Origin: Escherichia coli
GTDB taxonomy: Bacteria > Pseudomonadota > Gammaproteobacteria > Enterobacterales > Enterobacteriaceae
Assembly (NCBI RefSeq): GCF_003018255.1
Contig: NZ_CP027440.1
Length of the DNA: 64,000 nt
Strand: one strand, 5' to 3'
A program made the position numbers and the translations under genes. Within the stretch, counting starts at the first letter, position 1. Each line of letters begins with the position of its first letter. Below the pieces are notes generated by a model. It saw only the letters and a list, made by a program, of their open reading frames with translations, was not told where the DNA came from and did no database searches. Below, one piece after another: positions 9,100 to 64,000 of this stretch.

Positions 9100-9170
9100 T
9101 GTTCTGGTTCAAGATTAGCCCCCGTTCTGTTGTCAGGTTATACCTCTCAACGTGCGGGGGTTTTCTCTTT
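9100..9170 (+). ncRNA. rdl: Rdl-like antisense RNA (antitoxin of ldr); ends approximate
   Basis: It lies on the plus strand, antisense to the ldr 5' leader. The sequence ..CAAGATTAGCCCCCGTTCTGTTGTCAGGTTATACCTCTCAACGTGCGGGGGTTTTCTCTTT has a CCCCCG/CGGGGG stem plus a U-run, and resembles K-12 rdl as remembered. Confidence 0.45.
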
Positions 9171-25475: not shown

Positions 25476-25560
<85 letters not shown>

Positions 25561-25594: not shown

Positions 25595-25679
<85 letters not shown>

Positions 25680-25713: not shown

Positions 25714-25798
<85 letters not shown>

Positions 25799-30658: not shown

Positions 30659-30684
30659 TTTAAGCAAGTGTCATCTACAAAAGA

Positions 30685-32588: not shown

Positions 32589-34013
32589 TAATGCCAGTCA
32601 GTTAAGCAACTGACTGGCTCTTTTTCGGGGCTGTGGGGTATTTCCAGGGCCTCTCCTTTACCACTCTCGGGAAGGCACTTTCCCTTCTTGTCGGTAATTT
32701 CACAAGTTGTCCCATACTTGCAAGATCGCGCATCAGCTCCGGTATACGTCCCGGTGAAGCGCCCTGCAATGTCATCAGCATTCTCATCACCATTCCGCAT
32801 GATTCTGAGAAACTCAGTTGATTCGGCCAGTAACCTTTCAGATGTTCCGCCATTTTAATCATCTGATATCTCACCAGATTATAAGCCAGTAAGACACCCC
32901 ACAGCTCTTGCTCCACAAGCTCCGGCTTTTTACTTCTCAGCGTCAGCCTGCTCAGTTGCATCGTCTGTTTTATCTCCCTGTATCCCAGTTCGATTTCCCA
33001 GCGATGACTGTACAGATCCGCCATTTCTCCTCCGGGGAAGCGCATGGCGTCCGTCATCGACGTCAGCAGATGGCAGACTTTTCCTTTGCGCGTCACGGTC
33101 AGCAGGCGGGCTGTCACTTCATTTCCCAGTCCCGGCCACTTTTTTCGTGCCTGCGGGCTGATGTTCAGCTTCACCAGATGCTCGCCTTTACCCAGTTTTC
33201 TGATCTCTTCATATTGCGCTCCCTTTCTGAGAGGGATCATCCAGTGGCGGTGTTCTCCCGCCTGGCTCCAGGCATTTAACAGTCCTGGTGAGTAATAACC
33301 TTTATCCATTAACGTCAGAGTGTTATCGTCGGTTTGTTCTATAAGTTGCTCAGCAAGCTCATTTTCGCTGTTCTTCATCGTGCCGAAGGCTGCAGTCGTC
33401 AGCAGATGGCTGGTCAGTTCCATCTGGCAGACCATTTTGACCTGCGGGTAGAGCGCCGGGTTCCCGGCATGTGTCTGGCGGGGGAAGGCTGCATTGTTCT
33501 CTGGTGTATCCGGTGTGCGCCAGAACACACCATCGATGGCCAGCAGGGTCAGGCCGCACCAGTGCGGATGCGGCGTGGCGTTATGTCAGAGCTGCGCTGT
33601 TTTCGTGAACACGCGGCGGACAGCCTCAATTCCCAGACGCTGGCGGGTCTGAATAACGGCACTGGGGCAACGAAGGGGCGATTGCCCGGCAGCATGATGT
33701 CCAGGCGATTCACAATCTGGTGAAGAGGTTCTTTACGCTCAAGCGCCATGCCAACAATACACCAGACCATCATTTCGAGGGGAAGACGGCGCTTGCGTAG
33801 CGTTACAGTACCTGATTCGGCAAGGCAACGAGAGATGAGTTCGGGGTCGAGGTAATCCCCCAGAGAAGTCAGTGGGTTACGCAGAGAATCGTAACGGGAT
33901 ACCAGATCAAGAGCCTGTCCAATGTGCATAAAAAAATCCGGAAACAAGTGAGCGTTTCCGGATTCTTACACAGCCACTGGATCGGTCAACTGATCCTTAA
34001 CTGATCGGCATTA
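32589..34013 (-). mobile_element. IS4 insertion sequence (1425 bp) with an 11-bp target duplication
   Basis: Terminal inverted repeats are TAATGCCAGTCAGTTAAG (left) and TAATGCCGATCAGTTAAG (reverse complement of the right end). Flanking direct repeats CCCCAGAAGGG lie at 32577-87 and 34014-24. The internal ORFs match the IS4 transposase InsG as remembered. Confidence 0.92.
32602..33929 (-). pseudogene. IS4 transposase (InsG-like), inactivated by a 1-nt deletion and an in-frame TGA
   Basis: The N-terminal part (MHIGQALDLVSRYDSLRNPL..RPFVAP) leaves frame near 33663, where CCAGTGCC stands in place of the expected CCAAGTGCC. The restored frame reads [34 protein letters not shown], with a TGA at 33586-88 where IS4 has Trp. 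The remainder ([11 protein letters not shown].. to ..KKSQSVA) is intact. Confidence 0.85.
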
Positions 34014-56102: not shown

Positions 56103-56291
56103 TTATCCAGCCGGTGTTTCGTTATTCAGGTACAGCGATACTTTGTTTAACGGGAGACATTCACCGGAAATTTTTTGCTCGTCTCTTGCCTGATGGCAGG
56201 ATTCTTTACTGGCATAAATTCCGGTAATCACATTCTGTGGCTCACCCGTTATAAGAAAAACCGTCATTACCAGTGCAAATGCAGAAGTCAC
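56103..56291 (-). CDS. ydfD: YdfD-like small membrane/lysis protein (DUF1482-type)
   Basis: MTSAFALVMTVFLITGEPQNV..CHQARDEQKISGECLPLNKV.. resembles K-12 YdfD (MNSAFVLVLTVFLVSGEP..). 4-nt overlap with the dicB-like gene. Confidence 0.75.
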   Translation of the reverse strand: MTSAFALVMTVFLITGEPQNVITGIYASKESCHQARDEQKISGECLPLNKVSLYLNNETPAG

Positions 56292-56476
56292 TGCTGCCCT
56301 CCGAAAATGCCAAGTTTAAGAAGGGCAATTCTGGAGAGTATGGAATTATCATTGAGAAGATAAGGCTCATATTTTCTCATCCTGATGGCGTCCTCAGTAA
56401 ACTCCCGGTTACTGAGCAGAATACCAATATTAAAACACCCTTCAGACGTATTAACGTTTGGTAGTGACGTTTCCAT
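56288..56476 (-). CDS. dicB: DicB-like cell-division inhibitor
   Basis: METSLPNVNTSEGCFNIGILLSNREFTEDAIRMRK.. compared with K-12 DicB MKTLLPNVNTSEGCFEIGVTISNPVFTEDAINKRK.. (from memory). The length (62 aa) and the position after dicF are the same. Confidence 0.85.
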   Translation of the reverse strand: METSLPNVNTSEGCFNIGILLSNREFTEDAIRMRKYEPYLLNDNSILSRIALLKLGIFGGQQ

Positions 56477-56772: not shown

Positions 56773-57015
56773 ATGGAGGAAGCCCCAGCCATACTTACCG
56801 CCGCGCCATTTCGCGGATTGCCACAACCGGAAGCGCACGATCGAATTACATTTAACGACGACATATACAGAGAGACTAACTTCGCCGAGCGCTTTCGTGT
56901 TGTGTGCCTGCTTTTAACCACGTCAGGCGAGGTGGACCTGTTATTCCCCAACAACAAGGAGCTTGTTAATCTGGATATCCCCAACAACAATAAGAGTATT
57001 GAATGTGATCGCTGA
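56773..57015 (+). CDS. Hypothetical 80-aa ORF, first ORF of the opposite-strand cassette
   Basis: ORF-track entry (MEEAPAILTAAPFRGLPQPEAHDRITFNDDIYRETNFAERF..). It overlaps the next plus-strand ORF by 11 nt. The minus-strand ORF covering it is S/L/R-rich, like a shadow frame. The Shine-Dalgarno is poor and I recognise no homology. Confidence 0.3.
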   Translation: MEEAPAILTAAPFRGLPQPEAHDRITFNDDIYRETNFAERFRVVCLLLTTSGEVDLLFPNNKELVNLDIPNNNKSIECDR

Positions 57016-57519
57016 ATTAACGGCAGCAATGACGGCTATTCGTGAAACCGCTCAGATTACAAAACTAATGAACGAGGCAAAAACTCAAGCTGAAGTAAAT
57101 GCGGCTATTGGTGAACTGAACTCAAAGCTTGCATCTATTCAGCACGAATGCGTGTCTCTCGTTGAGCTGGTGAGCACTTATCAAGAAATAAATGCTTCTC
57201 TCAAAGCTAAAATTGCAGAATTTGAAAACTTTGAGGCTCAGACGGAAGGTTATATCCTTAACCAACTTGAGTCGGGAACTTTTGTGTACTCGAAGGAGGT
57301 AACCGTGAACGGCGGCAGCATAATCATGCATCTTTGTCCAAAATGTTTTGGACAAAAGATAGTATCGATACTTCAACCATTCCCGGTTAGAGAACATGAG
57401 TTTTTCATAAAAGCAGGTGCCTCTACTGTGAAAATCAGTTTCTTATGAATAAAAATCCGGATTATGTATCGCCTCCATCTATTGAGGAGTTGGCCAGAAA
57501 ACTGAACGGCAATCTGTAG
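57005..57519 (+). pseudogene. Coiled-coil plus four-Cys zinc-ribbon protein of unknown function, frameshifted at a T5 run (or carrying a homopolymer sequencing error)
   Basis: The frame from the GTG at 57005 (or the ATG at 57029) encodes heptad-rich sequence, then ..HLCPKCFGQKIVSILQPFPVREHEFF, and stops at 57448. The +1 frame after the T-run (57401-05) continues HKSRCLYCENQFLMNKNPDYVSPPSIEELARKLNGNL to a stop at 57519. This supplies the second Cys pair of a CPKC-N24-CLYC ribbon. Confidence 0.55.
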
Positions 57520-57632: not shown

Positions 57633-57785
57633 TTAGTCAGAGTTTCTTGCTAACCAGCGACGCGCGCCAGCTTCAGTTTTAAACGTTTTGCTTCTGGTAT
57701 ACGTCATCGCGGTAAACGTGCCGTCCTGGTTGGGGAATACTCCGCATACCAGAGATTCGTTGTTGCCAAGATTGAGCGTATCCAT
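57633..57785 (-). CDS. ydfA: YdfA-like DUF1391 protein (50 aa)
   Basis: Hand translation gives MDTLNLGNNESLVCGVFPNQDGTFTAMTYTRSKTFKTEAGARRWLARNSD. GAGG lies 6 nt upstream of the ATG. It is near-identical to K-12 YdfA as remembered, and too short for the ORF track. Confidence 0.85.
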   Translation of the reverse strand: MDTLNLGNNESLVCGVFPNQDGTFTAMTYTRSKTFKTEAGARRWLARNSD

Positions 57786-58080: not shown

Positions 58081-58500
58081 TCAGGAGGCTTTTTGTTTTT
58101 TCTTTCGCGCTAATTCTTCATAAATTGCGTTGTACTTCTGTTTTTTCTCCTCAAGAGTTTTTAAAAGTTCATCAGTTTCACTGTCAGGGAGTTCATCAAG
58201 AAGTTCAATGATGATTTTTTGCTTCGGACTTAACTCCTGATAGAAACGCAGGCTTCCGCTTTCTTCAGTGTCCTCCCCCAGAAGGTAAGTTGGTGTTGTT
58301 CCGATAAGTGCTGCCAATTCTTTCAGTTTCTCTCGACGGGGAATTGCCTCTCCATTAAACCATTTACTAACCGCTTTGGGTGTTAGCTTCATTCGACGGG
58401 CAATTTCTGCCTGCCTTCCGTGTTGTTCAAAGCCAGCATTTTCACAGGCTAGCGCAAGCCTGCTGGCGAACTCTTTACGCGCTTCATCTTCATGAACCAT
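58081..58500 (-). CDS. DicA-like prophage repressor (XRE HTH, no S24 peptidase domain)
   Basis: 139-aa ORF with an HTH (QAEIARRMKLTPKAVSKWFNGEAIP) and a C-terminal segment LSPKQKIIIELLDELPDSETDELLKTLE that parallels DicA LSPKELELLELFNALPESEQ. It is divergent from the cro-like gene. Confidence 0.85.
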   Translation of the reverse strand: MVHEDEARKEFASRLALACENAGFEQHGRQAEIARRMKLTPKAVSKWFNGEAIPRREKLKELAALIGTTPTYLLGEDTEESGSLRFYQELSPKQKIIIELLDELPDSETDELLKTLEEKKQKYNAIYEELARKKKQKAS

Positions 58501-63506: not shown

Positions 63507-63599
63507 AAACGGTTTGCGGGGAAAGAAGAGTTAAGTAGAATTGCTGCGGGTGCTTGAGGCTGTCTGCCTCGGGCATGCCGCCGTAAGGCAGACAGAGAA

Positions 63600-63703
63600 A
63601 AGCCCCAGTTAACATTACGCGTCTTGCAGGACGCTTAACATTAATCTGAGGCCCAATCTATGCTTCACAAACGTAGGTTAGCCTCTTACGTGCCGAAAGG
63701 CAA
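63600..63703 (-). ncRNA. sok: Sok-like antisense RNA and its promoter (approximate)
   Basis: Minus-strand promoter TTGCCT (63703-698)-N17-TAACCT (63680-75). The transcript would be antisense to the mok start and leader, and contains a GCGTC-N6-GACGC hairpin. The 3' end is not defined. Confidence 0.35.
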
Positions 63704-63872
63704 GGAGAAGCAGGCTATGAAGCAGCAAAAGGCGATGTTAATCGCCCTGATCGTCATCTGTATTACCGTTGTTGTGACGGCACTGGTAACGAGGAAAGAC
63801 CTCTGCGAGGTACGAATCCGAACCGGCCAGACGGAGGTCGCTGTCTTCGTAGACTACGAATCTGAGAAGTAA
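63660..63872 (+). CDS. mok: Mok-like reading frame (in-frame upstream extension of hok)
   Basis: 70-aa ORF MLHKRRLASYVPKGKEKQAMKQQ.., with the same organisation as K-12 MokC/HokC as remembered. Confidence 0.6.
   Translation: MLHKRRLASYVPKGKEKQAMKQQKAMLIALIVICITVVVTALVTRKDLCEVRIRTGQTEVAVFVDYESEK
63717..63872 (+). CDS. hok: Hok/Gef-family type I toxin (51 aa)
   Basis: MKQQKAMLIALIVICITVVVTALVTRKDLCEVRIRTGQTEVAVFVDYESEK is near-identical to HokC/Gef (MKQHKAMIVALIVICITAVVAALVTRKDLCEVHIRTGQTEVAVF..). GGAG lies 9 nt upstream. Confidence 0.9.
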   Translation: MKQQKAMLIALIVICITVVVTALVTRKDLCEVRIRTGQTEVAVFVDYESEK

Positions 63873-64000
63873 GAGTGACCAAGCGAGGGAGAAATCCCTC
63901 GCCACCTCTGATGTGTCAGGCATCCTCAACGCACCCGCACTTACCCCGTTCGGCAGACTTTGTTTTTTCCTGGCATTCTGGTTTACAATTCGCACGTCAG

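Follow-up and report, generated by a model that had tools for sequence, protein, structure and literature searches.

A probable recent frameshift pseudogene of a Rip1-family prophage defense gene in Escherichia coli

Rip1 ("ring interacting pore 1") is a single-protein defense encoded by prophages and has no toxicity by itself (PMC13434031, citing Patel et al. 2026, Nature 651:1060). Its C-terminal half contacts ring-shaped phage oligomers, the small terminase or the portal, late in superinfection, and its N-terminal amphipathic helix contributes to a membrane pore that results in permeabilization and premature lysis (PMC13434031). In the cryo-EM structure, 12 Rip1 monomers surround an 11-mer small-terminase ring, and phages that escape Rip1 carry mutations in the portal or small terminase (PMC13434031). 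The PDB entry 9oox is titled as Escherichia phage HK446 Rip1 in complex with Enterobacteria phage T6 small terminase. Rip1-like proteins are also encoded by Mu-like prophages of Pseudomonas aeruginosa (JBD30_030, DMS3, D3112 orf25, and MP38 ORF25), and the Pseudomonas rip1 gene lies between the small and large terminase genes (PMC13434031). Here we describe a rip1-like gene in a 64,000-nucleotide stretch of E. coli DNA, referred to below as the window, in which the reading frame is interrupted.

The intact form of the encoded protein, as found in close homologues, matched nothing above threshold in Pfam, NCBIfam, or PADLOC (weak coiled-coil noise only), and its PHROGs match was only to phrog_1244, a family of "unknown function." A large protein collection contained 118 homologues across the Enterobacterales, mostly of 155 to 175 aa. 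A profile built from 64 homologues matched the Rip1 chain of 9oox (9oox_L) with an E value of 1.4e-23 over profile positions 5 to 153 of 168, and the single sequence matched the same chain with an E value of 1.1e-7, with both CxxC pairs aligned. By hhalign, the match to HK446_037 had a probability of 99% (E = 4.4e-18), and BLASTP to JBD30_030 of the Pseudomonas phage gave 30% identity over 153 aa (E = 2e-21). When an intact homologue was modeled with AlphaFold2 (pLDDT 91.5), the prediction showed long helices at residues 2 to 23 and 28 to 79, a beta-rich domain at 84 to 150, and a short C-terminal helix at 160 to 167. This model was matched to 9oox_M by Foldseek with a probability of 1.00 (TMt 0.71, 120 columns). 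Both the sequence homology and the fold of Rip1, in which N-terminal helices precede a beta-rich C-terminal domain, were thus found. Within the known Rip1 family, the gene represents a new E. coli subfamily member that had no annotation, with 27 to 30% identity to the characterized Rip1 proteins.

The comparison with HK446 Rip1 is close in architecture. The lengths are nearly equal (164 aa, versus 171 aa for the restored window protein), both proteins have long N-terminal helices and then a beta-rich C-terminal domain, and the two CxxC pairs align, at about 24 to 27% identity between HK446 Rip1 and the window subfamily. Unlike HK446 Rip1, the window subfamily has the extra C-terminal helix (160 to 167), and the window copy itself is frameshifted and lacks the second CxxC. 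With JBD30_030, both CxxC pairs and an ILQP motif align. Hydrophobic moment peaks of 0.37 to 0.42 over residues 7 to 30 indicate moderate amphipathicity, which is not diagnostic of a pore helix.

In alignments of 41 and of 64 homologues, which extend down to 26 to 28% identity, the only invariant columns were G91, Y95, C111, C114, C139, and C142. In the AlphaFold2 model, the first CxxC is placed where strand 104-110 ends and a short helix (112 to 116) begins, and the turn that connects strands 134-139 and 145-150 contains the second. The restored protein is therefore predicted to carry a four-Cys putative zinc module made of two conserved CxxC pairs, each at a beta-turn. Since all four Cys residues are invariant in the 64 homologues, the second pair appears to be as essential as the first.

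Table 1. Features of the rip1-like locus and its neighbors (positions in the window)
Feature	Position	Strand	Remarks
dicB (kil-type cell-division inhibitor)	56288..56476	-	collinear annotation in homologous T6 locus L001; phrog_1251
truncated rip1-like ORF	57005..57448	+	GTG start same as PGAP start of intact homologues; residues 1-134 native, 135-147 (IKAGASTVKISFL) out-of-frame junk
putative first zinc knuckle codons, C111-P-K-C114	57335..57346	+	in frame; invariant in 64 homologues
T5 homopolymer, site of 1-nt deletion	57401..57405	+	T6 in close homologues, encoding F133-F134
out-of-frame 3' rip1 remnant, H135...L171 plus TAG stop	57406..57519	+	+1 register
putative second zinc knuckle	C139, 57418-57420; C142, 57427-57429	+	inside 3' remnant; invariant
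DUF1391 gene, downstream neighbor	57633..57785	-	collinear annotation in L001; phrog_751
CI-like HTH repressor of the prophage	58081..58500	-	PF01381 HTH_3

The original prediction, made from the letters of the window, was that a T5 run splits a four-Cys zinc ribbon and that a T6 run would encode an intact protein of 171 aa. Its coordinates and peptides (the T5 run, both stops, and the 24-residue CxxC spacing) were all correct on rereading. Direct reading of the window gives GAG TTTTT CATA for positions 57398 to 57409. Frame 0 from the GTG comprises 147 codons and ends with ...HLCPKCFGQKIVSILQPFPVREHEFFIKAGASTVKISFL* at a TGA stop (57446-57448). Translation starting at position 57406 gives HKSRCLYCENQFLMNKNPDYVSPPSIEELARKLNGNL*, with its stop at 57517-57519, and this downstream +1 frame peptide runs HKSRCLYC...GNL*. 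It aligns residue for residue with the 64 homologues, all of which keep both CxxC pairs. The T6 homologues are annotated 516-nt coding sequences of 171 aa that read ...EFFHKSRCLYCENQ...GNL, and the 171-aa length expected from a T6 run agrees exactly with the annotation in STEC435 and M3. In the restored protein, 24 residues lie between C114 and C139. Both CxxC pairs thus stand in one frame in the T6 homologues, while only C111 and C114 do so in the window, and the invariant four-Cys site is split by the frameshift as predicted. Because C139 and C142 fall in the +1 register after T5, the window copy is a Rip1-family pseudogene.

The run length was T6 in all 20 of the same-group copies listed, the comparison that had been proposed as a check. 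Between STEC435 and the window, 201 of 202 aligned columns were identical, and the missing T was the sole difference. Since the window is otherwise identical to STEC435 across these columns, the lesion must be very recent, which supports the option of a recent inactivation. We conclude that the window very probably holds a Rip1-family prophage defense gene that has genuinely and recently become a frameshift pseudogene. The change is best described as a single-base homopolymer deletion, probably a recent and recurrent slippage mutation, that costs half of the putative zinc site.

The gene lies in a lambdoid prophage integrated adjoining ompW. It is on the plus strand among minus-strand early genes, between dicB and DUF1391/cI; the leftward early operon ends with dicB, after which comes the counter-oriented rip1-like gene, and a cro-like gene, divergent from the CI-like repressor, comes next along. 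From this arrangement, it appears to be a single prophage gene with its own transcription, set apart from the neighboring phage operons. HK446 rip1 occupies the same slot, between kil/cIII and N and oriented against the pL operon. The P. aeruginosa genes are likewise prophage encoded and on the strand opposite to their neighbors, but in the Mu-like phages the gene is in the late region, whereas the window gene is in the immunity-proximal early region. The sieB gene of lambda and Rac lies in an equivalent counter-oriented slot in the leftward early operon near the repressor. Like rip1, sieB is a prophage-borne, single-gene abortive-infection function. It is a positional analogue only, with no detected sequence relationship, and SieB, a membrane protein, has no zinc site. 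A simple scan found no consensus promoter or terminator for the plus-strand gene, which leaves analogy as the basis for expression in the lysogen; the position in the immunity-proximal region suggests that the gene may be expressed there.

An 80-aa ORF (56773-57015, plus strand) overlaps the rip1-like start by 11 nt and is called as a gene by Logan. In some records it is fused to rip1, giving products of 243 aa (PhiR49_1), 210 aa (EDL933 CP-933N), and 186 aa (P0004). We rejected it as a partner gene: it has no PHROG or family match and is uncalled by PGAP, and it is probably a start-site annotation artifact. Elsewhere in the window, a sok antitoxin RNA (63548-63722, plus strand; Rfam RF01794, 117.7 bits) adjoins a Hok/Gef toxin gene (hokD) where the visible prophage segment ends on the right. 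In the chromosomal backbone, an rdlD antitoxin RNA (9101-9166, plus strand; RF01813, 87 bits) is located beside an Ldr-type toxin gene. Three tandem tRNA-Tyr genes on the minus strand (25479-25560, 25598-25679, and 25717-25798) adjoin an RtT RNA; JNE23-011, the closest complete genome, has two, and the extra copy in the window corresponds to one 119-bp repeat unit.

The proposed consequence of the deletion is as follows. Replication slippage would have shortened the T6 run, which spans codons F133-F134, to T5. Translation would then leave the native frame after F134, add 13 unrelated residues, and stop. The product would lack C139, C142, the last two beta-strands (134-139 and 145-150), and the C-terminal helix at 160 to 167. 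With half of the invariant four-Cys ligands gone, the C-terminal sensor domain should misfold; it would neither bind zinc nor fold, and the result would be a null allele. From the conservation of the missing part, we infer that the truncated product has lost its function. The intact protein would be harmless alone, and its C-terminal half would bind the small terminase or portal ring of a superinfecting phage late in infection. Twelve copies would assemble around the ring, and the N-terminal amphipathic helices would form a membrane pore and cause premature lysis. That the intact E. coli subfamily protein acts by the Rip1 defense mechanism is expected by homology to the characterized members.

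How common are the intact and interrupted alleles? A 611-bp query around the gene matched 653 of 5,426 complete E. coli genomes (about 12%) and spanned 612 bases, one above the query, in all 40 matches listed. Close homologues were present in 645 complete E. coli genomes, with an annotated length of 171 aa among the matches listed. The two exact intact 171-aa products were found on at least 1,000 and on 673 contigs (at least 1,673 together). Off-length contigs comprised four with the window-type T5, two with a second T5 variant, and one with T7 (135-aa product), about 0.4% of contigs. IMG/VR contigs with this allele carried T6 in nine of nine cases. Exact-pattern scans for tract variants found none in the metagenome collection or in GTDB species-representative genomes. 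The haplotypes were compared over 829 bp across loci. The window-type T5 haplotype was otherwise identical to T6 loci L001 and L020, while the second T5 type (L010 and L011) matched T6 loci L016, L021, and L023. The T7 allele (L012) was on the second haplotype, and its host prophage has a different immunity region. In this 829-bp comparison, T5 on two haplotypes plus T7 indicates that at least two to three independent slippage events were sampled. By its sequence record, the tract is a minor mutational hotspot.

The tract itself is not conserved. The other common E. coli allele group, which is 92 to 94% identical and present in 312 complete genomes, has CTTTTT and is in frame, and the F133-F134 position is variable across the family alignment. 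Among protein database entries, four E. coli rip1-like copies (P0013, P0019, P0054, and P0084) are broken in other ways. The kinds of damage include a frameshift in the C-terminal part, after HKS; a truncation after QPFP; and fusions, one to a tail-fiber-like sequence rich in His and Gly and another to a DUF1627 protein. These varied disruptions look like repeated loss in decaying prophages, consistent with ordinary prophage decay.

The recurrence of off-length alleles might be read differently, with the T6 tract as a recurrently hit weak spot at which loss of the gene is selected rather than neutral, relieving conflict between prophages. If so, in polylysogenic, often STEC-type, E. coli, a Rip1 sensor that responds to any small terminase or portal able to form rings would be triggered by induction of a co-resident prophage as well, and the T5 and T7 alleles, independent and on different haplotypes, would record selection for rip1 loss. 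We regard selected loss as unlikely.

The T5 allele could also retain activity, either through leaky recoding or through residual function of the truncated product. In the recoding version, a low-level -1 slip would move tRNA-Phe from UUC (57404-06) to UUU (57403-05), ahead of AUA, and the peptide expected as diagnostic in a T5 strain is SRCLYCENQFLMNK. A -1 shift on U_UUC would yield ...EFFHKSRC..., exactly the wild-type sequence, and the zero-frame codon after the slip, AUA, is a rare codon in E. coli. The heptamer G_UUU_UUC, however, departs from the canonical X_XXY_YYZ, and the T5 arrangement is a new mutation (days old in evolutionary terms) that is unconserved, the other copies listed being in frame. 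A frameshift stimulator downstream of the tract was rejected on RNA folding: folding of the 83 nt that begin with the tract is no stronger than that of shuffled sequences (z = +0.63; 140 of 200 fold at least as well). The slippery heptamer, 3' structure, and conservation of a programmed -1 frameshift were thus not found, and the homologues are single in-frame ORFs. In the residual-function version, the truncated N-terminal helical protein would still be active, for example as a dominant negative on other Rip1 copies; residues 1 to 134, including both long helices, do stay native. Trace amounts are nevertheless unlikely to build a 12-mer assembly, and we judge retained activity to be very unlikely.

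The missing T could instead be an assembly or sequencing artifact, the real genome carrying T6 and an intact gene. Homopolymer undercalls are a common error type, and the exact T5 85-mer was absent from all 5,426 complete RefSeq E. coli genomes, a collection without the window's own genome, with one extra base in all 60 matches listed. Relative to its nearest relatives (the best backbone matches among complete E. coli genomes are 99.0 to 99.7% identical), the window has four single-base homopolymer differences in 64 kb, and all four are deletions in the window. Against this, the exact 147-aa product is present on an NCBI chromosome of 4,892,666 bp and in Logan assemblies SRR7947255, SRR30416638 (plus one similar place), and SRR13088289, the last on a contig seen in six samples. 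In total, the T5 product was assembled from short reads in about nine SRA runs, of which some may be resequencing of one isolate, although a contig one SNP away from the window (L006) and the two T5 contigs of the other haplotype do differ. Logan contigs matched the window at 100%, 99.95%, and 100% over 3,659, 2,005, and 978 bp, with T5 in all. The T5 allele on the other haplotype came from two runs. Further runs with off-length tracts are SRR18191636 and SRR8931299, which carry T5, and SRR23524011, which carries T7.

The remaining homopolymer differences point the same way. Only one other is coding, G4 versus G5 at 33663, and this G4 allele is common to four complete E. coli genomes (Rb-50, DETEC-S792, 200164, and E04), three of which are among the window's closest backbone relatives. 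Since four complete genomes carry it, G4 at 33663 is an inherited polymorphism, and the window's homopolymer differences behave as such. The gene concerned is an IS4-family transposase (32602-33947, minus strand) between tdk and adhE, split into ORFs of 308 aa and 132 aa; a close relative of the window has an intact 448-aa ORF. The other two differences are apparently intergenic: T4 versus T5 in close relatives at 30661, just downstream of hns, and T2 versus T3 at 63948, downstream of the hok/sok locus. With T5 in independent read sets and G4 in related genomes, the idea that the window assembly is generally prone to homopolymer error was rejected. The sequencing error that had been offered as an explanation is thereby largely excluded, and an artifact at the T run is highly improbable.

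Finally, it had been suggested that slippage switches a costly gene on and off, that is, that the T tract is a contingency locus at which a defense gene is toggled at a useful rate. Length variants do recur, with T5 on two haplotypes that are each otherwise the common T6 haplotype and T7 once, and defense genes can be costly or clash with co-resident prophages. As in the contingency loci of Neisseria, Haemophilus, and Campylobacter, the run is coding, its length sets the frame, and -1 and +1 variants are seen. In known contingency loci, mononucleotide tracts are usually 7 to 8 nt or more, and a 6-nt run mutates far too slowly for switching in mismatch-repair-proficient E. coli. The rip1-like tract, by comparison, is 6 nt, below the usual length, and unconserved; it is interrupted in the CTTTTT allele group, and the FF codons vary in the family. 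Neither common ON and OFF lengths nor a conserved hypermutable tract was found: there were seven off-length contigs against the at least 1,673 with the exact intact products, T6 was uniform in the IMG/VR contigs, and exact T5 occurred in 0 of the 42 closest complete genomes, with one extra base in every match listed. The premise of a costly gene is also weakened, since Rip1 is reported to be harmless alone (PMC13434031). Switching is therefore unsupported and extremely unlikely, and the frameshift is an ordinary loss-of-function mutation of routine prophage decay, not a genetic switch.

The rip1-like gene is labeled "hypothetical protein" by RefSeq among the matches listed from the 653 complete E. 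coli genomes, for example at L001 (3056-3571) and L004 (12005-12520), and the family is absent from Pfam, NCBIfam, and PADLOC-DB v2.0.0. Assignment to the Rip1 pore-forming defense family is now possible for a gene that about 12% of complete E. coli genomes carry, and the annotation gap concerns a defense family described in 2026. The window strain itself should be scored as lacking Rip1-type defense. While the frameshift is biologically ordinary, the value of the locus lies in the family annotation and in the natural T5/T6 allele pair, which is ready isogenic material for asking whether the second zinc knuckle is needed in ring sensing.
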